From assembly GCA_022813865.1 (NCBI GenBank), contig JALDZX010000013.1, forward strand, positions 434,001-462,478: DNA of 28,478 bases, written 5' to 3'. This document shows positions 1,916 to 26,712 of the stretch, in pieces (position 1 is the stretch's first letter; each line of letters begins with the position of its first letter). The position numbers were made by a program, and so were the translations under genes. The notes beneath the pieces were generated by a model that saw only the letters and a list, made by a program, of their open reading frames with translations, searched no databases and had not been told where the DNA came from. The stretch comes from Xylographa opegraphella. Its lineage: Eukaryota.

Positions 1916-3857
1916 ATGGCCGACCATAGTGCCTCCGAACTTGAGAGCAGAATGGACTCGACGAAGCTCGCTGATGCTGCTGCCCAGGTAGAACCCCAAG
2001 AGATTTCCAAGAGTGCTGCGAAGAAGGCCGCCAAGCAAGAGAAGCTGGCCGCGGAGAAAGCGAACAAATCTACGACAAACACCACCAAGGAAGCCGGTCG
2101 GGCAGAGGCCAGGAAAGCCGTGAGCAAAACACCAAAGAAGAAAATAGAAGGAGCGGCCTTAATTGGGATCGACGTGTCGAAGGAGGAGGACTTTTCTGGC
2201 TGGTATCAACAGGTCTTGACCAAAGGAGACATGCTAGACTACTACGATGTATCCGGTTGCTACATTCTAAAGGTATAGACCTACTCGCAACTGTTCTTCT
2301 TCTCTAACGGCAGCCCAGCCTCCGTCGTACTTCATCTGGGAAGAAATACAGCAATGGTTCAACCACCGGATAAAAAAGCTTGGCGTCAAAAACTGCTCAT
2401 TTCCAATGTTTGTGTCACAAGATGTTCTGGAGAGGGAGAAAGATCATATCGAGGGCTTCGCGGCAGAGGTCGCATGGGTTACACATGCGTATGTCAATTC
2501 CTCCTAGAGCCTCAGCTATAAGCATGGACTAACTGCATTCGCAGGGGCAACACTCCGCTTGAGAAGAAGATTGCCATTCGTCCCACATCAGAAACTGTCA
2601 TGTACCCTTACTACGCAAAATGGATACGAAGCCACCGTGATCTACCCCTAAGACTAAACCAGTGGAATTCTGTAGTGAGGTGGGAGTTCAAGCATCCACA
2701 GCCGTTCCTCCGTACTCGCGAGTTTCTTTGGCAAGAAGGTCATACTGCTCATCTCACTCAGGAAGGAGCGGGAGAAGAAGTCCTTCAAATACTGGACTAC
2801 TATGCTGGTGTCTACGAAGACTTACTAGCCGTTCCCGTCGTCAAGGGTAGGAAAACGGAGAAAGAAAAGTTTGCGGGAGGGCTATATACCACAACTGTGG
2901 AAGGCTATATCCCTGCAACTGGCCGTGGAATCCAAGGAGGTACTTCGCATTGTCTAGGCCAAAATTTCAGTAAAATGTTTGGGATCACAGTCGAAGATCC
3001 TTCTGCCAAAGAAGGCGAAAAGAAAGCCCCATTGCATGTCTGGCAAAATTCATGGGGTCTGTCGACACGTACTATAGGGGTTATGGTAATGATTCATGGA
3101 GATAATCGAGGCCTAGTGATTCCTCCACGAGTTGCAGAATACCAGGTTGTGATCATTCCGGTCGGTGTTACAGCCAAAATGAGCGACGAAGACAAGAATG
3201 GGCTCTACGACCAAGTCGACGCACTTGCTACGGTTCTCCGGGCATGTGACTTACGTGTCGAAACAGACAAACGTGACGGCTACTCCCCAGGATGGAAATT
3301 CAACGAGTGGGAGCAAAAGGGGGTACCGCTACGCCTCGAGTTCGGACCGGGAGAGTCAGATGGGCATTTTGTCACTACATCCCGACGAGACATTGCTGGA
3401 AAGGAGGGTAAAGGCGCCATTCCCATAACTGAGATTAACACGGAAATCCCAGCCTTGCTTGAGAAGATCCAAGCAGATCTCTACGCCCGAGCTGATGAGA
3501 CTTTCAAGGCTCACCGCAAGGTCGTCACGTCGTGGGACGAGTTTGTACCGGCGCTGAATGCTAAGAATGTAGTTCTGATTCCACATTGTTTAACAGAAAA
3601 GTGTGAAGATGAGATCAAAGAGCTGAGTGCAAGGAAAGAAATCGGTGACGAGACCCCGCAGGACGAGAAAGCGCCGAGTATGGGAGCGAAGAGTTTATGC
3701 ATCCCGTTTGATCAGCCTGAGGGTATTGTGAAGGGAGAGACGAAATGCACGAATCCGCAGTGTAAGAACCTGGCGGAGCAGTGGTGTATGTTTGGAAGTA
3801 AGTACTCATCCTTGTGGTTTTCTAGAGTGATACTAATAATTTACAGGGAGCTACTAG
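1916..3857 (+). CDS. Cytosolic prolyl-tRNA synthetase (eukaryote/archaeal type)
   Basis: Exons 1916-2272, 2319-2488, 2545-3797 and 3847-3857. Motifs [33 protein letters not shown]...[33 protein letters not shown] and C-terminal MFGRSY*. An alternative start is possible at 1952. Confidence 0.96.
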
Positions 3858-5928
3858 CTTCTCCAACGTCGCTTGTCAAGGATCAGCGTGCGGCTATCTC
3901 CTAGGTGGTCAGCTGTTGACAGGCGAATTGTTCGATCTGAGATAACTCGTATACTCGTATATCCGATAACTCGATCTACGAAGAGATACGAAGAAGGAAA
4001 TATGGCACGCGTGTGTTCAGCGAGTCAATGACTACGTCGAGTTTCGGCCCACTCAATGGTCCTGATAGGCCTATAACTAGAGCAGCACGAACCTGAAAGA
4101 TACTCAAGTACCATCCCCGTAACCCTCTCAACTACAGCCTTGAACTGTGACAAGAAAGCTTGGCTGTGTCCTAGATCAGACTCAGGTGTTCTGACCTATA
4201 CGTTAAGTAGTGACCACCCTAGTTGTGGTTGTTAGAATAAGGCCAACTGCATGTAAAATAGGTTGACCAGTCGTGCAGGTCCGGTTTCTGATTCAGCATG
4301 CATATTATTGATTCTTGGCTGGAAGTCCGAAGGTACCACCATCGTTTCAACAATACTTTTCTTTTCTTTCTCTGCCTATCTCTTTCCGTCCAACCATACC
4401 AATGTGCTATAATGGTTTCGTTGAGTGACTTCCAAAAGCGTTTGTTCTCAATTTCCAGTTTTTCAGTAGAGGCGCTGAATGAACTAGTCCTCGATGTATC
4501 CTCCTGAAAAATAAACATAATTCTGATTACTGATGTTGTTTCTCTTCTGTGGCTTATTTGATGGTGTTGCTACTAAAACTTACTTGTGAAGTCGGAAATC
4601 ACAAGTCTGGTCTCTCTACAGATCAGACAAGGCAAGGAGGTGGGCAGGGTAAGACTTGCATTCTTGGAAAAGTTCAAGCTAACTTCACAGGTAAGGCCAT
4701 TCGGGGCTGGTGAGATTGCTTTTAAGTGTTATATCACTGATCGGCGGTGGTGGTTCGTACTTGTTAAGCCGGGACCAGTGGCAGATCTAAGAATAGCGCA
4801 AATGAGTAGAGGACGGCAGGTAGGCGATATTACAATACCCAGCAAAGGGCGAGCATCAACGAAGATGGTGGCTACCCAAGTAACAAATTGACCGTTACGT
4901 GTTTCAGCTTGAAGTGTTGCAGATGGAAGTCGCTTGCAGAGCAGGATGAGTGGATATTGCATGGAAGCCAGACGAAAGCTGTAAGGTGTCGTGCAATCGA
5001 GGCGTCAACCAGGTATCTTGTGGAAAATCGACATCTACGATGCAAGCCGCCGGCAGATTTCACGAAATTACTTGTAAGGTAAATGCATCCCACCAGGAAA
5101 AAGGCCATATCAAATTACACAAGAGACAGCAGGTGAACCTCCTCTATTGTAGGCAAAGTTTCTCAATGGTTTTCAGCCGGAAATACGCATGCACCGTAGC
5201 TCCCGGTACTACCGAGCCAGCTCTGAAGGATATTGAACGGCTCTTGACTCATCGGCAACTGCAAGGTGGCTTTTGGATACATATTACTCTATTCGACAAG
5301 AGCCCTAAGGTATTCAATAAGCTCGCTTGTTTCTGTATCGCATTTGGCTGGTCGAAAGCTGGTCTGGTCAGGGGGCCGCCTGCACTGGTATACTCGATGT
5401 CAGTCAATCTTCTGGCATTTAGCCATAAACACAATACATAGCACGATAGTAACGCAAACGGAAGCCAAAGATTCGTGAATTTGAAGAATGGCGATCCGTA
5501 TACTCTTGTACTACTGATTCTGAGGGTTTCGAATATCGCAAACCCCTCATCTTCCCTTGTAGACAAGCTGTATATGTGCTTGCAGTCAAAGTCAGTCAGC
5601 ACACTGCTAACAAAGTCGAGCAGCAATCCTGGTAGTCATATTGTAGGAAAAGCCGCTGAGCTTGAGGGGCTGTGATAACTTGATAATGAATGGACGGTTC
5701 GATTACCCACCGAACCTGAAAGTTAACTCCCACATGCAATATGCTGCTACCACATTTACAACAATATCTAAGCCACAATAATATGATCAAATGTTTGGAT
5801 GAGACCATATAGCTCGACCCAAACGATACAAAGGTGTTGAAAGCCATCGTTGATTTCCAAAGATTGTTACATAATGATAGATATTAGAATCTGATTTACA
5901 CAGCTAATTCTTCGGTTGTGTAGTGTAG

Positions 5929-5981
5929 GTGGGTTATCGGCGTCCCAACGTTGTATTTCTCCCTGCTAACTGAGGCAAAAG
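5929..5981 (+). other. Spliceosomal-type intron 1 in the tRNA D-loop (between positions 15 and 16), 53 nt
   Basis: Donor GTGGGT, identical to the Ras intron 1 donor at 10416. Branch GCTAAC at 5965-5970, acceptor AAG at 5979-5981. Removal restores the A14-G15-A16-G18-G19 D-loop. Confidence 0.78.
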
Positions 5982-5999
5982 AGGTTATCACATCAGATT

Positions 6000-6050
6000 G
6001 TACGAGTTCGATTGACTGCCACTTTCGCTCAAAATACTAATTCCCCTCAG
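6000..6050 (+). other. Spliceosomal-type intron 2 in the tRNA anticodon loop (between positions 33 and 34), 51 nt
   Basis: Donor GTACGA, branch TACTAAT at 6035-6041, pyrimidine tract TCCCCT and acceptor CAG. Removal joins U33 to the UUG anticodon. Confidence 0.85.
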
Positions 6051-6054
6051 TTGA

Positions 6055-6061
6055 ATGAATC
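6055..6061 (+). other. Canonical 37/38 tRNA intron (ATGAATC, 7 nt)
   Basis: Lies one base 3' of the anticodon. Its antepenultimate A can pair with U32 (anticodon-intron pair). Confidence 0.75.
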
Positions 6062-6108
6062 TTCTGGATACCCCGGTTCGAGTCCGGGCACGACCTTAGT
6101 GCTATTAA

Positions 6109-6114
6109 TTTTTT
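6109..6114 (+). terminator. RNA polymerase III T6 terminator
   Basis: TTTTTT begins 13 nt after the tRNA discriminator base. Confidence 0.7.
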
Positions 6115-6271
6115 GGTGGATCTTTTGGCACTTTCCGCGAAAACAAGATGTGTGACGCTATCCTAAAGTGATTATTTATTAGTTCATCCTAAGATAGGAC
6201 TTAACTTACCTCTACGACCTCAGTTTCAATCCCGTCCATCACACCTAAGACTGCTGTTCGACGACGCAATA

Positions 6272-6956
6272 ATGGTGCGCAATGTCCAAAGCAAGCATAT
6301 CGCGTATCTAATACGTCTCGCAGGCCTCAGAGTCTCGCCTTTACACCTTCTCACCAGCAACAACTGCTGATTTACGCAAATTCCGCCTCGGGACATCTCG
6401 AGCCAAAGATCCTCAAGCGGTGATATGTACGTCTTGAGTAATCATGTTGATGTATGCCGAGCCAGGCCCCTTTCTTATATGTCAGCAAGCAAGTCATTCA
6501 AAGACTCAATGACGTTTTCTTGCAAGCATATGGCCCAGGCTGACTATTGTTCTTCAGATCAAATTGACAAGCACACTCTCGAGATCGCTCAAGCGGACGA
6601 TGTCACATACACGAATATGCAGGAGCTAGCAAACGAGCTTCCAGCTCATTCACCACGCTATGTATTACTTAGTTATCCGTTGACTCTGGTGTGTGCTATT
6701 TTACTTTGTTCTTCACGGATCAAGAAGATGGACTGAAAGAATGGCATATGGATCTAACATGGTGAAGACTTCCGGAAGATTATCAGTACCATACGTGATG
6801 GTATACTATTTACCAGTAACATGCAATGCAGAGCTGCGCATGCTGTACGCCGGAGCAAAGGAGCTGATGCGCAACACCGCGGAGGTCGGGAGGGTCATAG
6901 AAATGGCAGATCCGGAAGATCTAGAGGAGATTGAAAAGAGGCTCGGAGGGGAGTAG
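6272..6956 (+). CDS. Glia maturation factor (GMF/Aim7-like) ADF-homology protein, Arp2/3 regulator
   Basis: Exons 6272-6274 (ATG only), 6324-6426, 6558-6688 and 6768-6956. Product MASESRLYTFS...LRKFRLGTSRAKDPQAVIYQIDK...ELANELPAHSPRYVLLSYPLTL-TSGRLSVPYVMVYYLP...RMLYAGAKELMRN. Confidence 0.92.
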
Positions 6957-7482: not shown

Positions 7483-8592
7483 ATGTTTGCTAGATTGAGT
7501 CAATTGTCTCGTCACTTATCTCGACCACTTCCCAACTACGCCCATACCTCCGCTTCTGTATCACGTCCATCCTTTGCTGGAAGCATCATGACATCATCAT
7601 CAGAGGCTTCAGCGGAGCGGACGAGACGCATGATACACACGGCAGCAGCATTGATCATCGGAGACGAGATACTGAATGGTAAGGTGGGCAGTTGTCTCAT
7701 ATGTTGATGGCACTCCGAGCAAAGAGCTAACACGCTCCCAGACGGTTGACTCCAATTCGGCCTATTTTGCCAAGTTCTGTTTCTCTCTGGGCATCAATCT
7801 CAAACGAATAGAGGTGATTGCCGATGATGAGAGCGAGATCATCGAGGCGGTCAGACGCATGAGCGACAAGTACGACTTCGTCGTCACAAGCGGAGGGATA
7901 GGCCCCACGTATGCACGACACACATGCGGGTCACACAGGTTTCCTACGCTGACCAGCACCTTAGACATGATGACATTACATACGAATCCATCGCCAAGGC
8001 ATTCAACCTGAAACTAAAGTTACATGACGACGCCTTGCGGCGTATGAAAAGGCTGTCGAAGCCTCATCCATCTCAGCCGAACTTTTCGTATGATGTGCCT
8101 AGTCCTGCATTGGAGGCCAAGTTGCGGATGCTTCGACTACCCATCGATACGGAGAGAGAGGAGGAGAGCCAAGTCCTCTTTGTGGATGAGGGTCTCTGGG
8201 TGCCGATCAGTGTTGTGAATGGAAACATACACATCCTACCCGGTGTTCCTCGATTATTCACGCAACTACTGGATGGCCTGAAACCTCGCCTTGTACCGCG
8301 GCTGACAGATCCAGAAGGGAAGGGGATCTACCGAGTAATGATATCCACACCCATGGCAGAGAGTGCAGTGGCGGCGTATTTGACCAAACTGGCCGCCCAA
8401 GCCGAGCCCCATGGCATCAAGGTCGGAAGTTATCCGCGCTGGGGCAAGGGCAGGAACACGGTGACGCTCGTAGGGAGAGACAAGGCGTACATGGACAGCC
8501 TGATCCCAGAGGTCGAAAAGAATGTGCAGGGCATTCGAGTGGACAAGGAAGACGAGGCGGACCACCTTAACCCCGAAGACCTAGAAAGCTAG
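7483..8592 (+). CDS. Molybdopterin-binding (MoCF_biosynth/CinA-like) domain protein, similar to yeast YMR178W-type FAD diphosphatase
   Basis: Exons 7483-7683, 7742-7908 and 7965-8592. Motifs IIGDEILNGK-TVDSNS, VVTSGGIGPT-HDDITY, ILPGVP and KVGSYP. Confidence 0.88.
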
Positions 8593-16756: not shown

Positions 16757-17797
16757 ATGGACACTCTATGCACTCTTGACCAAAGAATGACTTCAATTCT
16801 GGACGAACGAAAACCCTTACAGTACGCCGAGGACGATGAAATACACGCAACAACACAGGTCTCAGAGTCTTCAGACAGCCTCAGTCTCAGTTCCGAAACT
16901 AGTACTACTTCTTGCAGGACATCTATAGAGTTCCGCTACGGAACTCAAGATTATCCTGCGGCCACAGCCTCCACATCCATCAAAGCCCTCGACCTTGCTC
17001 TACCAGAAGCGATAGAGAAGCGTAATGGGCTTCTAGTAAATAGGTGGCCTCATAGCTGGCTGGAGATCAGACAGCATAACTACCTGGCAGTAGAGATGTA
17101 CATATCAAGATCCAGCAGGATGTCGGAAGACAGTTCTGTCAGTATTGAAGATCTTGAGACTCCCGAAGATCTGAAATGTGCTGATGACCTGGAGTGTGCT
17201 GAAGACCTGGAATGTGCCGAAGACCCGGAGTATGCCGAAGACTTTGAGACCGCTATGAAACTAAGATTCGGGGATCGGCGAACTTACTTTCACCACCTCA
17301 ATTTTCACAATCAACCCGTCTACCATAAGTCATCAACTCCACCGGAGGTATCACTTTGGTTAATCATAACTGAAACAAACCCCAAATCACGATATTCGCT
17401 GTTCTGTCGTGAATTGGTCATAGCTTCTCAGGCAGGAAAGCTTATCGACCCAGTACACTACCAAGGACCCGAGGAACTCCTGGAATTAAAAGGCAATGCA
17501 CTCCGGAATGCCGTCACAGGCTACGTCGACATAGCGTACCGGCCGTTGGGAACATGGGGTCGGGATTATTACAGCTCGGATGAGGTGGTGCCTGTTTGCT
17601 CAACTACAATTTATAACTGGTTCGATGGAGAATATAACAGAGGCCCACCAAAAGGGTATACTATTCGCTCATGCGATGGAGATGTTCTCATTAACGACGA
17701 CGGCCGAGTACACTTAACGCAACAAACCTCGGCAAAGGTCGCAAGCAAATCCAAGCTTTGCATAGTCCAATGTGTGGACGACAATCAAGAGTCGTGA
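16757..17797 (+). CDS. Uncharacterised acidic protein, paralogue of the 19822-23910 locus; possibly a truncated or pseudogenised copy
   Basis: 346-aa ORF. Its C-terminal ~160 aa align by eye with ORF 21033-21728 (HHLNF..QPV, P.VS.W, AGK..DP, ELKG..L...VTG.VDI.Y...GTW, DGD...NDDGRVHL). Confidence 0.65.
   Translation: MDTLCTLDQRMTSILDERKPLQYAEDDEIHATTQVSESSDSLSLSSETSTTSCRTSIEFRYGTQDYPAATASTSIKALDLALPEAIEKRNGLLVNRWPHSWLEIRQHNYLAVEMYISRSSRMSEDSSVSIEDLETPEDLKCADDLECAEDLECAEDPEYAEDFETAMKLRFGDRRTYFHHLNFHNQPVYHKSSTPPEVSLWLIITETNPKSRYSLFCRELVIASQAGKLIDPVHYQGPEELLELKGNALRNAVTGYVDIAYRPLGTWGRDYYSSDEVVPVCSTTIYNWFDGEYNRGPPKGYTIRSCDGDVLINDDGRVHLTQQTSAKVASKSKLCIVQCVDDNQES
17147..17254 (+). repeat. Coding minisatellite, 6 x 18 bp
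   Basis: Encodes EDLETP EDLKCA DDLECA EDLECA EDPEYA EDFETA. Confidence 0.9.
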
Positions 17798-19821: not shown

Positions 19822-22800
19822 ATGGCGGCTTCCTGGATTCCCTTCATATTCGCAACTCTTCAATCTCAGGTGAGCATCAACTCCCAGTTCTTCCACGACC
19901 CATATTACGAACCTATAAACTGTATATACATTTGAAACTGACCTCTGTTTCCTAGGCTTACAAACTCGGAAGATATGTTGCTGCCGGTTCGTGGTGTGAA
20001 ATAACCCGAGAAGAGAAGGTATTCATAAAATGTCCTACGTGTAATGATCATGACTAAGCCAAACAGATTGATTTCCAAAACTCGGATGGCCTCAATTTGC
20101 AGCCACTAAGAGAATACTTGCTTGTCGACATTGCTTTGGTAAATTTACGCAGTGCCATGTACGGCTCAGGTCGATTTCTTCTGCCTTCCGAATCACCGAC
20201 ACAAGCAATATCTACGTACTGTGCAATATACAATGAAGCAGCTGGATGGTTCGAGGTTTCGGTACGAGGAAACCTTCGAACACATCACGCCAAGCAAGAA
20301 CTTGGGGTATCAGAGGGTATACTACTCGAACCCAACGATACGGAGGATTGTTTTTTACCACATTCCCAAGCATACCCGCTGAACAACACTACCGCTGCAG
20401 GCGGTATGGAATATTCATCTTCTTCGGAGGCACAAGGCATCATTGGCACTCCGGAGATATCGAAACCTTCTGTGGTTCCTATCCCATCGAAAACTTCTGC
20501 AACGAAGGACAATGTAGCAGCTCCAAACACAGTGGCCCTTGTCCTTAAACATTCCACGGAGTCACTTTCTCTATCCTCTTGTATTTTGGACGCTCCTTCC
20601 GTCCCAGCTTATGCATACTACGAATCGAAATCTGGCTGTGACTGGGCTTCAATGCTAGATGATGAAGATGAGGAAGAGTCCTACGCTTCTCCATATTATC
20701 ATTCGCCCAGTGGAGAGGACTGCGCGATGATTGATGAAGAATACCGGTTCGAACACGATGACAGAGTGGTAACTCCTCCTGTTATGCTGCCTGATACGCC
20801 TGACCACGTTGCAATCGATGGATCTCGAACCTGTGTATCTACTGCTCCAATGGTCGAAACGTCTCCACGGCATACGAGTTCTGTCCTCGTCGCTGTAAAC
20901 AAGAAACATCCTTCGGCCACTAACATTGGTATCGAGTCCCCATTGCCAAACCTTCGGCAGTACATCCCGTAAGATACCACAGCAGCTTTTGAGAAGGTTC
21001 TGGCTGAGCTTGATCCGAAACATCGCCAAACTATGGCTGGTCGCCGATACGCTCAAGGCGTTGTTCACTGGCAGTGGATGTGCGAGGCCTCTGAACAACT
21101 ATTGGCGTCAGGGCGAGGCCGGCGAACTCGCTTGGAGGAATCCGATCGGTCAGTAGGCTGGTTTGGGGTGGACATTCATGAGAATAGATCTGCGAAAGTG
21201 TCTCATAGCCCCGCCTCTGATCCTCGAGTTCCAAAATCTCCGAAGCCCATCCATCACATCAACTTCGCTGGCCAGCCTGTACATGAGAGGACATACACTA
21301 GCCCAGCAGTATCATTTTGGGCAGCCACGAGTGAGGGTTTGAAGAATCGAATTGATCACAATGGGTCACTGCTCCGTTCGGTGATTTCTTCAAACGCCGG
21401 AAAAATGCTTGACCCGTTCATCGGTCCATCAGTTGCACCAGAACTGAAAGGTTCCAAGCTTAAGGAGTGGGTCACCGGAGCCGTCGATATTGTTTACCAG
21501 ACATATGGAACTTGGATAGAGGATGAGCTAGAACCCGATGATGATCGCCGAATTGCTGATGTGCCATGCTGTTTTGCTGGATGTGAGGATATAAACTGTC
21601 CTCCAATTCCATATATCATCGACCTCTCGGACGGAGACATTGTGGTGAATGATGATGGTCGTGTTCATCTGGGACAAAAAAGCCAAAGAGGAAATGTGTT
21701 CGACTGCGCTCGAAGCTTTGCAGGGTGACGAATATTAGCAGGATGAACGCAGAAGACCATACTCCTCTATCTACCTACCCCGAGAACTTCTACACAGTGC
21801 CATCAGATGCTCTCGATGCTCTGTTTATGGAGACTACTCCGGAGGTGTCTATCAATATGCCGGCGCTGATACTTGAGACGATCAGCAGAGACAAACTTGA
21901 GTACCAAGCTACTTCTTCGCCTATACCAAAGGAGACCGCATTCACGACTCAGCAAATGTCAGATCGACTATTCGCTTTATTTTCTGAATTCGACGAAGCC
22001 GATGACATGGCTTCAAGCGAAGCAGAGCCATTAAGTGCCGAAGATGAAAATATATCATCACTGTCTACAATATGGGAGCATACAGAAGATCAGGAGTACG
22101 AAATGTCGACGTGCTTTCGGATCGACCTGGACTTATCGATGAAAGCCACATTACAAATCCCTGTCACTAATTTCAAGGACGCCTCAGAGGATAGAGCTCC
22201 AGCTTTGTTCGGGTTAGATGATACTTTGCTCCTACAAGCTTCTGTAGTCATCTCCAGTGGTACGAGACAATGGAAGTCTTTCACTATACAGACGGAAATG
22301 TTCGATGCCGTGGTACAGGAAAATCCTGAAGTCGAATCAAGCTCACAGTCAAAGACATATTCAGATCCTTCATCCACATATTACTGACAACACTAATATG
22401 TCAAGTGATCGTATGCTACACCAAGCAATTATCTCTATACAGGATCTGGCTATCTTGAAGATGTTCAGCCTCTTCAGTTTTGACCGCGCGACTAATGAAA
22501 GCAATTTATCACTATCCTTCGCTACAAAAAAAAGACGTTTTATATGCTTATATTGCGATGCATGAACCAGGTGTTAGCTCCCGAGCTACATCACTGGTCA
22601 CAGATGCTTACAAGACAAAAACGGTTGATGCGATTACATGGCCACTCGAGGAATTGGGTTACTTTGCTATCAAGGCAAATGAGGAGGAAGCACCCATTAT
22701 TCAGAGCACTCCTATTATTATAACTAACGGGAAAATTCCGTTTCCTACCAACATCGAAGTACAGTCACCAGAATGGGCCGAAGAGTACTGGATAAACCAC

Positions 22801-23910
22801 GAATCCCATATCAATTTCGAGCACAATAGGAGTTCAAGTGGCTCTCTGACCGACTCTGATCTCGAAGGATTCAGTTCTTCCCTTTGTAGCACAGAGTCTA
22901 CTGGATCTGATGCCTCTAATGGCACAAATGAATCAGATGGATCAAAATTTCTCACCCCGGATTCGGTGCCGAACTCTTTCAACTCATTCAAACCACCGAG
23001 AAAATATATAAATGGCCAAGGATTTGATATAAATGATTTACTGGAAACGGATGACACAGTAACTGAATCTGTTTTTGATGCAGGGCAAGGTTCAACTGAG
23101 CGATTTGTACGACCTTGTCAACCAGTGTCTCATATGTCTCATTTTGTGCTAAATGGACTTCTTGTCGCAATGCACCACAAGTTCAAGGACGAGGATAAGT
23201 ACTTCAACTATCATTCTGACGATGAACTGAAGGTTCGAAATGGCGATATCGAGAATTTTTAGTCATCCGATTCTAATGTAAAATCACATAACGACGTATG
23301 TATGCACGGATCAATTAGTGATAGCTTGATCGATTCTGATCCTGTTACCACGACACCTCAAGCTACGAAGGTCTCGACTTATGCAGCACCTCAATTCGGG
23401 AGAAGCTCATTTATTGGCCATGTGATTATTTCCAGAACAAATGATGACGACCAGGCTGTGACAATGAAGGCAGCCGTGGAGGAAAAGCAAATCAAGAACG
23501 GTTCGACACCAGGAATTACTTTAATACGGTCTCCTACAAGCCAAGATTGGGCGAGTCTCAGCCAACCATCCATTTTAATGCTTCCAACTGAAGCACCATC
23601 AATAGGGACGAATGTTTTGGGTTCATCGACTGAAGAGACAAAATTGAGTCTGGGGGAGCGACGGGCAAGAGAACGGGATACTCCCGAAACCCCAGGAATA
23701 CGAACCACTGCTGGAAAAGCCGAAGGTCAAGGCTTCGTACGGTGTCCCAACATCCTGACATCGCGCCTTGAAGATGCAATCGTTGAACCCGTGCCTTTCG
23801 ACTGTGGTGTAGGCTTCTCCCTACCGGTCCCAAACCTCTCCGATTCTTTGCTATATGGTAGTATTGCAGGATATTTGGGGTATCGAATTTTTACTGCATT
23901 ACGACGGTGA
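19822..23910 (+). pseudogene. Large uncharacterised acidic/Ser-rich gene interrupted by in-frame stops and frameshifts
   Basis: Clean 5' exons 19822-19869 and 19956-20018, then 20067 onward (GT-AG introns with branch sites). In-frame TAA at 20970-20972 and TAG at 23260-23262, each followed by open frame. Frameshift near the A6 run at 21676-21681 and further frame changes at about 22380-22535. Confidence 0.72.
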
Positions 23911-24299: not shown

Positions 24300-26712
24300 C
24301 TAAGCCGCACGCCGCCAGCCGGCCGGTTTCGGCAGTAGGTTCCACCAGCACCACCGTGCGTTGAACCACCAATTAGCTATCTCCTCATCCGATAGGCCAT
24401 CGTCTCTCATTCTCTGTATGAAGAGCTGACCCCTCTTCTCCAACCGTTCCAGGCCTGCTGCCCTGTGGGGTGCTGTGTGTTCGACTACTGTTCCTCTGTT
24501 GACACCTTGGAATAATTCGTCAGGAGATGCTGTCCAACCTCGCCCCAGAAGACCAGAACCGTTCGAATTGTCTCTCAAATTTTGCCGTATTTGTGAAAAG
24601 CTGAGTTTCGCCTGAGTCTCATCCAGATTCGGGTCATAGAATCCTCCTTCATTCCCAGGACGCCTTCCCTCGCGGCCCCTTGGTAGAAACAGTTTGAAGT
24701 CGTCCACACTCTGTTGACCCTTCTCATCCAGAACACCAGAGATACCTCGACTTTCTTCCGGCAGGCCGACAGAGTATGTGAGATCGTGCATGGGACATGT
24801 ACAAGTTAGGCCTTTGTACGTTCTATTGGCTGTATGGTCTGACAATATTGCTTTAGAGCCGTTGGGAATAATTCCGTCGGTTAAGGTGGAGCCCCAAGGA
24901 TCATCGAAATGGGGGCTCAAGTCCAGCAACCTTACATGCGCTTTCCCATCCACTCTAGAAACTCCGGACATCACGATCTGAACACCACTCTGTACGTCAA
25001 TGGCATGTTTGAGGCCAGATCCGGAGCGTTCAATATTGCTCTCGATGTCAAGGTCGGAATTGACCTTGGGGTTAAGGGCAAGTCCTCCGTCGGTATAATC
25101 ATTAGAAGTCCAGATAGATTGATGGAGTTGACGAAGAGGACTTTCCTTGTGCAATCCGCCGAGACCCAGAGGCACTGTGGATATCCTTATCTGCCGGAGA
25201 GCTTGAAGCTTGGTGTGCCGAAGCGAGTCACCAGGTTTTACTTTGTATAGGAAAAGTTCCGCCGGACTTGATGGACACCAAGGATCCACCCAACTGATGA
25301 CCATGCGGAATTTCTGGGGACACCATTGTTTACTAGCGTAGCAAACTGAAAGATTCCGGAACACCATGCGTTTCTTTGGGGCGAAGATCCGGATCGTGGG
25401 ATTCACAGTGTAGGACCGATTTCCCGGGATAGAATCCACACCTCGCACACAGCGTACCATGACAAGGTGTAATTGCTGAGTCGCGATATGTTTCGCGACT
25501 ATGAGCCTTTCAGAGCATCTACAGGGCTGGTCAGTTGAGTATAGCTGATTCATATCAGTGCCTGTGAGAGCCTAGATCAATAATCACACTACTTACCTCA
25601 ATTGTATCCATTTCCCTCAAGAGTACCCATTTACCCGTGTTGGGATCGTTGATAACCCGAGCTCCTGGATCGTCTTGTTTGACAGCAGCCAAGAGTAGGC
25701 TGGTGCCTGACTCGATTTTACTTTGTATAACATCACGAGCTCCGATTGCTTCTATGTGCTCTACACATTGTTCTGTATCTGTGATGGTCTCCCCTTTGAA
25801 TCCGATGCTATCGTCAGCAACTGAAGCTAAGTGGGTATATTCGACCGGCACAACGATCAGCTTCAAGAAAGACTCGGTGTTTGCAAATTGCGCGCGTGGT
25901 TCGACTCTACAGCCTCGAAGCCAAGTATGGCAGGGGGACCTCAGGAGTATTGGGTGATTGAACGAGCGGCTCAATACATCGTGTCCTAGGCCAACGACTT
26001 CGAGCTCGTTCACATACTCTGGACAGCTCACACTTCCGAGATGGCTAGGCCGTCCGCAAGAGTTGAGAGAGTAGAATACTATTCTTTTCTCCCCTTCGGT
26101 CATAGCGATATCGCCCCGGAGGTCCGGAAAAGGCTTGACGAGAAGTATCACGACCCGGACCGGGTTCCAGTATGACATCCATTCGATCGTCTGTTTCCGT
26201 GGTAACTGACTTGACGACAATCCGAACCCAACGTCCACCGCACGAAAATTCTGCTTCCATGAGCGATCGTCATCCAGATGGTGTAGTACCTTCGCCGCTT
26301 TCTGAAATTCCACGTTTAAGCGTTGCAGATCAGAGGTTTCCCTGATGCATTTGTCAAGTCGTGATTGGCGTGGGTTGCATTGACTGTCAGCGGAAAGTAA
26401 GACCGATTGCAAGAGTCCGACGTTCGTCGTAATACAGTTCCACCAGGTCTTACAGGTACATCGAGCGGCGTCGAGATCCATAATGCCAAGGTTTGCAAGC
26501 ATTCGATCTCTGATTTCCTTAGGTAGAGCCGTTACGCGGTCACTCGAACTTCTATCGGCCTGAGATTCGCCAACTTGATCCAAGTATGCATGCGGCGATG
26601 AGGGGTGTGGCTCATGAAAATCAAAACCTTCACCAGGAGGAGGGATGTCATAGTAATACTGTCGACCCCTCTCACCTCCTTGGGGAATGACACGAAAGCT
26701 TCGGTGTGGCAT
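24300..26712 (-). CDS. F-box domain protein (~786 aa)
   Basis: ORFs 25555-26712 and 24300-25553 are joined in frame by intron 25596..25545 (GTAAGT...CTGAT...CAG). F-box-like motif VTALPKEIRDRMLANLGIMDLDAARCTCKTWWNCI. Confidence 0.8.

Follow-up and report, generated by a model that had tools for sequence, protein, structure and literature searches.

Can a transfer RNA (tRNA) gene be interrupted by introns of the kind found in messenger RNA (mRNA), and can a working tRNA still be produced from it? This question is raised by a tRNA-Gln(UUG)-like gene at positions 5914-6096 of a 28,478-nucleotide (nt) stretch of the genome of Xylographa opegraphella (assembly GCA_022813865.1, contig JALDZX010000013.1, positions 434,001 to 462,478 of the forward strand). 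The whole of this stretch is referred to below as the window, and all positions are counted from its first letter. According to the standard view, the spliceosome takes no part in the splicing of tRNA, as a 2026 review states (PMC13149111), and spliceosomal introns belong to transcripts of RNA polymerase II (Pol II), as a 2025 preprint has it (10.1101/2025.06.17.660180). As a reading of the sequence, the locus is almost certainly a tRNA-Gln(UUG) gene that carries two inserts of mRNA type together with a 7-nt intron at the canonical position of tRNA introns.

The gene lies on the + strand and extends from the first acceptor base at 5914 to a discriminator T at 6096. The 5′ acceptor strand (5914-5920) pairs with 6089-6095 at all seven positions. 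Both strands of the 28-kb window were scanned for T-arms, defined as a 5-base-pair (bp) stem closed by G53-C61 and carrying a TTYRANN loop, and the sole element of this kind is located at 6072-6088. A complementary acceptor strand accompanied by T8 occurs within 450 nt of this T-arm at a single site, 5914, which is 182 nt upstream, and the scan yielded no second tRNA anywhere in the window. The original prediction, a reading of the bare sequence, had placed the gene at 5914 to 6096, and these coordinates prove exact: the acceptor strands pair throughout, the discriminator stands at 6096, and the T-arm is the only one present. The B-box pattern also has one match in the window, at 6075-6085. 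Since at least one match appears in 17 of 100 shuffled controls, this pattern alone is little proof of a tRNA gene.

Standard annotation tools either pass over the locus or misname it, as had been anticipated from its unusual structure. ARAGORN at default settings reports no gene. Rfam has no match at its gathering score across the window, neither to a tRNA nor to a ribosomal RNA (rRNA) or small nuclear RNA (snRNA) gene, and no tRNA match within 5800-6200 even at E ≤ 10. When introns are allowed (option -i), the call of ARAGORN on the raw locus is a weak one, tRNA-Gly(CCC) interrupted by an intron of 101 nt and denoted Gly(ccc)i(35,101). In the corresponding fold the D-stem is 2-3 bp long and contains G-U pairs, the anticodon stem includes another two of these, and the variable region measures 16 nt.

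The identity of the gene is clearer when it is compared with related genes. Metagenome contigs were scanned with 21 nt of the 3′ exon, and five loci (L001-L005) were obtained. L004 and L005 are chance matches to the 21-mer that have no tRNA around them, and were left out. L001 is an uninterrupted tRNA-Gln(CUG) gene, and L002 and L003 are metagenomic fungal tRNA-Gln(CUG) genes in which an intron of 8 nt occupies position 37/38 (ARAGORN: Gln(ctg)i(39,8)); in both loci the gene spans 343-422. The window gene agrees with all three in its acceptor stem, its first 15 nt, and its T-arm.

Removal of three inserts leaves four exons that together make up a complete tRNA. Exon 1 (5914-5928) contains the 5′ acceptor strand (5914-5920), U8, the 5′ side of the D-stem, A14, and G15, and its 15 nt are identical to the start of the tRNA-Gln genes in L001-L003. 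Exon 2 (5982-5999) holds the remainder of the D-loop including G18 and G19, the 3′ side of the D-stem, nt 26, the 5′ strand of the anticodon stem, U32, and U33. It is collinear with L002 and L003 once the inserts are excised and is consistent with the cloverleaf drawn by ARAGORN. Exon 3 (6051-6054) consists of the anticodon, U34 U35 G36, followed by A37. Exon 4 (6062-6096) comprises nt 38, the 3′ strand of the anticodon stem, a 4-nt variable loop, the T-arm (6072-6088), the 3′ acceptor strand, and U73, and its 21 nt at 6075-6095 recur unchanged in the L001-L003 tRNA-Gln genes. In the spliced product the acceptor stem pairs at 7/7 positions, the T-stem at 5/5, and the anticodon stem at 5/5 (one G-U), and the conserved positions U8, A14, G18 G19, U33, A37, and the T-loop are all present. 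The 72 exon nucleotides contain no disabling change. Three variants of intron 1, differing in length, are considered below; whichever is used, ARAGORN identifies the product as Gln(ttg) once all three inserts have been cut out in silico. The earlier claim that a Gln(UUG)-type gene is split at non-canonical sites by inserts of the GT..branch..AG form is supported here.

Several other tRNA identities, namely Ile(aat), Leu(caa), Lys(ttt), and Phe(gaa), were called on partly spliced versions and rejected. These folds have G-U stems, long variable regions, and U37 or no U33, and their acceptor and T-arm are of the Gln type. Compared with L001, the anticodon stem (5993-5997 / 6063-6067) shows a change of pair 29-41 from G-C to A-T that keeps the pairing, and a T-G wobble at 27-43 is common to both genes.

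Intron 1 is a 53-nt insert of mRNA type in the D-loop (5929-5981), between nt 15 and 16. Its junctions read TAG/GTGGGT and AAAAG/AG, the branch motif GCTAAC lies at 5965-5970 with CTAAC 11 nt before the end, and the first five bases of its start are those of the local mRNA intron at 7684-7741 (GTGGGC). The placement was also examined by a search blind to splice motifs, in which any two segments of 36-70 nt were removed and the resulting 88,039 double excisions were scored against the L002 precursor. In the best 25 rows (score 56), insert 1 always occupies relative positions 15-67, 16-68, or 17-69. These slides yield the same product, and the middle one corresponds to 5929-5981, which starts with GT and ends with AG. 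Excision of these 53 nt gives a D-loop of the same length as in L001-L003, with one position different.

A 6-nt direct repeat, GTTATC (5933-5938 and 5984-5989), brackets a 51-nt version of insert 1, and because of it this 51-nt insert can be placed in seven equivalent ways. The repeat looks like the footprint of an insertion or break-repair event that may have created the intron.

Intron 2, likewise of mRNA type, is 51 nt long (6000-6050) and is inserted between nt 33 and 34, immediately 5′ of the anticodon. It has the junctions ATT/GTACGA and CCTCAG/TTG and contains TACTAAT at 6035-6041. The CTAAT stands 9 nt before the end and is followed by a pyrimidine run and CAG. In the best 25 rows of the motif-blind search this insert is placed less sharply, with ten tied placements, among them 6000-6050. 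Intron 2 interrupts what would otherwise be a run of four T at U32-U35 (5998-5999 and 6051-6052), and one may speculate that it spares RNA polymerase III (Pol III) a premature stop at this point.

Intron 3 is of the ordinary tRNA type. It consists of 7 nt (6055-6061) at the canonical 37/38 site, and must also be removed because an anticodon loop of 7 nt requires its excision. It sits at the site of the 8-nt intron of L002 and L003. For a eukaryote, tRNA introns of 7-8 nt are very short. This insert had been overlooked in the original prediction, whose two long GT-AG inserts are retained here and whose count of inserts is not. The 37/38 position of intron 3 is that of substrates of the tRNA splicing endonuclease, whereas the two long inserts lie at 15/16 and 33/34 and showed no convincing bulge-helix-bulge (BHB) structure in the predicted folds or in an enumeration of helices made without a positive control.

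The two long inserts were compared with the introns of neighboring protein-coding genes. A FAD synthase and a TCP-1 alpha encoded nearby are 100% identical to database proteins P0001 and P0241, respectively, both of which are named as Xylographa opegraphella, so that the window belongs to this lichen fungus or to a nearly identical one. Exact spliced alignment of P0241 and P0001, together with alignment of P0121, a prolyl-tRNA synthetase with 96% identity, defines eight local mRNA introns, four on the - strand (1568-1627, 1468-1519, 1332-1381, and 1181-1226) and four on the + strand (7684-7741, 7909-7964, 2273-2318, and 2489-2544). These protein-guided models replaced a de novo set of 204 GT..AG candidates that joined open reading frames (ORFs), most of which were spurious. 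The lengths of all eight local introns fall between 46 and 60 nt; each intron opens with GT and has CTRAY 8-11 nt ahead of its terminal AG. Their first six bases are GTGGGC, GTATGC, GTATGT, GTATGG, GTAGGC, GTATAG, and, in two cases, GTACTT.

Both long tRNA inserts agree with U2-type GT-AG introns in their GT start, their AG end, the distance of the branch motif, and a length within the local range. A simple intron test was formulated as a GT start, a CTRAY 8-14 nt from the end, an AG end, and a length of 45-60 nt. It is passed by all eight local introns and by both inserts (53 and 51 nt). Among random 45-60-nt segments of the window, 124 of 909,616 pass (1.4e-4), and the rate is about 1e-4 in five shuffles. 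Simple arithmetic on this pass rate, allowing about ten boundary placements for each insert, gives a probability of roughly 1e-6 that two such inserts would occur by chance. The two inserts are unlike each other, and neither further copies of them nor an introner family was found within the 28-kb window, which is little to go on for such a question.

These features would be accounted for by a tRNA-Gln(UUG) gene in the nucleus of a lichen-forming ascomycete, with a precursor that is spliced three times. In this proposal, the two U2-type GT-AG introns (5929-5981 and 6000-6050) would be removed by the spliceosome, and the 7-nt intron at 37/38 (6055-6061) would be removed by the tRNA splicing endonuclease and ligase. 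Since the two inserts look like mRNA introns, the tRNA probably needs the mRNA-splicing machinery for its maturation. That the spliceosome removes both long inserts and that a working tRNA results is somewhat more probable than the opposite.

Transcription would probably be carried out by Pol III, from internal A and B boxes to a T-run terminator. A run of six T (T6), resembling a Pol III terminator, is located at 6109-6114 (+), 13 nt past the gene, with a run of four T at 6121-6124, and the gene interior contains no run of four or more T. The run downstream and the lack of such runs inside fit transcription by Pol III. Runs of four T that look like terminators occur at a similar distance after the genes of L001-L003. 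Judged by eye against the consensus, the stretch at 5921-5932, which combines exon 1 with the first bases of intron 1, resembles an A box. The A- and B-box-like stretches are about 150 bp apart in the DNA.

The need for this tRNA can be judged from codon usage. In three local coding sequences (1,202 codons), CAA accounts for 20 of 40 Gln codons. Since CAA is in use and, by the established decoding rule, a tRNA with the anticodon CUG is unable to read it, a UUG isoacceptor is needed, and on this point we agree with the original prediction. The further statement there, that the gene must be functional if the genome otherwise seems to lack this tRNA, goes beyond what can be concluded from sequence by itself.

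Several observations weigh against the proposal of spliceosomal removal from a Pol III transcript. An A- to B-box distance of about 150 bp exceeds the usual spacing. The eight reference introns are gene models derived from protein alignment and are not based on RNA. The ends of intron 1 are ambiguous, as the insert can be read as 53 nt, as 55 nt (5929-5983), or as 51 nt (5933-5983); the 55-nt alternative has its branch motif 13 nt before the end, outside the local range of 8-11, and the 51-nt alternative has a poor start, GTTATC, but is bracketed by the 6-nt direct repeat and leaves a 10-nt D-loop. When only the two long inserts are removed, the top call of ARAGORN varies with the version of intron 1. 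For the 51-nt version the call is Gln(ttg)i(40,7) with the -i option and Lys(ttt) without it; for the other two, of 53 and 55 nt, it is Phe(gaa), with U37 and a variable loop of 9 nt. The Gln reading is preferred over Phe and Lys because of the homology to L002 and L003 and the matching small intron in these genes.

Four alternatives were considered. The locus might be a dead or dying copy, that is, a former tRNA-Gln gene into which two intron-like insertions were carried, possibly by reverse splicing or intron transposition, with conventional Gln-UUG genes serving the CAA codons. The requirement for three splicing events speaks for decay, as does the GTTATC direct repeat, which around the 51-nt form of insert 1 looks like an insertion footprint. 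Against decay stand 72 exon nucleotides free of disabling change, a substitution at pair 29-41 that preserves pairing relative to L001, and intact splice signals, A- and B-box-like stretches, and T6 run. We regard this explanation as unlikely, though deserving of serious consideration. A quite different route would retain the splicing and change the polymerase: the tRNA would be embedded in a Pol II precursor, either an upstream noncoding RNA (ncRNA) or the 5′ leader of the + strand gene that follows; this precursor would be spliced like an mRNA, and the tRNA would be released from it by RNase P and RNase Z. The spliceosome normally acts on Pol II transcripts (10.1101/2025.06.17.660180), and the region around the locus, between the prolyl-tRNA synthetase and FAD synthase genes, is poor in genes over 2.5 kb (the alignment of the prolyl-tRNA synthetase ends at 3805 and the next ORFs begin near 6371), with both neighbors transcribed in the direction of the tRNA gene. 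Pol III is nevertheless suggested by the T6 run that closely follows the gene and by the A- and B-box-like stretches inside it, and splicing of Pol III transcripts is shown to be possible by U6 (PMC5855946). A Pol II precursor is regarded as improbable.

Ectopic and multiple tRNA introns are known in archaea and the red alga Cyanidioschyzon (PMC3978253), and the long inserts could be BHB introns of this kind, cut by the tRNA endonuclease, with splice-like signals that arose by chance. Two weak, G-U-rich helices of 4 bp can indeed be drawn for insert 1, but an enumeration without a positive control found no 4-bp central helix at the junctions of insert 2 or for the 51-nt form of insert 1. The predicted folds of the precursor, in which the acceptor stem and T-arm are formed and the inserts are folded on themselves, contain no BHB either, and the pattern GT..CTRAY..AG would have to arise by chance in each insert at a rate of about 1e-4, so that there is very little to be said for this explanation. 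Least credible is another tRNA identity with a single long intron of the conventional type, either Gly(CCC) with a 101-nt intron, as reported by ARAGORN -i on the raw locus, or a Tyr(GUA)-like tRNA with a 58-nt intron. The Gly(CCC) fold has to accept G-U pairs in a D-stem of 2-3 bp, two more in the anticodon stem, and a long variable arm, which is not known from Gly tRNAs. In both readings the tRNA would also have an acceptor and a T-arm of the Gln-gene type. The Tyr(GUA) candidate was read by eye, has C at nt 37 and a Gln-type body, and was never called by ARAGORN. The probability of either identity is close to negligible.

The proposed structure, a tRNA gene with two spliceosomal introns and one tRNA-type intron, may be compared with several known systems. 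In Schizosaccharomyces pombe, the intron of the single U6 gene is removed by the spliceosome from a Pol III transcript, and many other fungi are predicted to have U6 introns, again with canonical signals. Introns of this type also occur in U1, U2, and U5 (Rhodotorula) and in rRNA genes (PMC5855946). The sequences of the fungal U6 introns are not conserved, and a single gene may contain up to four of them (PMC5855946). The window gene resembles these genes in that short GT..branch..AG introns interrupt a small, structured ncRNA gene of the Pol III class (PMC5855946). Unlike U6, the tRNA host is not part of the spliceosome, and the window gene has a tRNA-type intron as well. An origin by reverse splicing into an RNA of the catalytic center, which is available for U6, does not obviously apply to a tRNA.

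A second precedent comes from the lichens themselves. Ectopic spliceosomal introns occur in the ribosomal DNA (rDNA) of lichen mycobionts (Bhattacharya et al. 2000, cited in PMC8527467), and yeast removed one such intron when it was placed in its Pol I rDNA (PMC8527467). The lichen rDNA and the window gene have in common a lichen mycobiont host and ectopic mRNA-type introns in a gene that is not, or in the case of the tRNA probably not, transcribed by Pol II. The rDNA introns are removed from the mature RNA, as the inserts of the window gene would be. The host is a Pol I rRNA there and a Pol III tRNA here, and the window itself contains no rDNA.

Canonical eukaryotic tRNA introns are represented in the window gene by the 7-nt insert at 37/38, as in L002 and L003. 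The long inserts differ from them in their positions (15/16 and 33/34) and in having splice and branch motifs instead of a structural signal. The tRNA genes known from archaea and from Cyanidioschyzon merolae that are permuted or contain multiple or ectopic BHB introns share with the window gene several non-canonical cuts and the property of being missed by standard finders (PMC3978253). Those genes rely on the BHB, which was not found here, and the window inserts carry full spliceosomal signals instead. No description of spliceosomal introns in tRNA genes was found in the full-text literature searched, and papers outside it could exist.

If the proposal is correct, tRNAs would join U6 snRNA and lichen rDNA as targets of the spliceosome other than mRNA. 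Tools of the tRNAscan type would under-count the tRNA genes of such fungi, which would lead to false reports of missing isoacceptors. The locus would further offer a natural system in which to study the recruitment of the spliceosome to transcripts of Pol III and the origin of new introns. A wider form of the proposal is that in lichen-forming and other ascomycetes a whole group of tRNA genes, here possibly the sole source of tRNA-Gln(UUG), cannot mature unless their Pol III transcripts are processed by the spliceosome, in which case translation would depend on the capacity for mRNA splicing. We put this forward tentatively and consider it doubtful at present. A lineage-wide class of split tRNA genes, as envisaged in the original prediction, likewise has the standing of a prediction.

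Elsewhere in the window, the protein encoded at 1952-3805 (+) (P0121, P0124, P0126, and others) bears the name 'ribose-phosphate pyrophosphokinase 1' in several NCBI records, and its Pfam domains are those of a prolyl-tRNA synthetase; the name is probably a propagated misannotation. Long ORF regions are located at 16757-17797 (+), 20097-23910 (+), and 24300-26712 (-). No Pfam family was detected in any of the five long ORFs tested (16757-17797, 20097-20972, 22480-23262, 24300-25553, and 25555-26712). The five + strand ORFs at 20097-23910 may constitute one large multi-exon gene or a degraded one. Just 3′ of the tRNA gene, the ORFs at 6371-6956 (+) look by eye like an intron-split gene for an actin-binding protein of the ADF/cofilin or GMF type.

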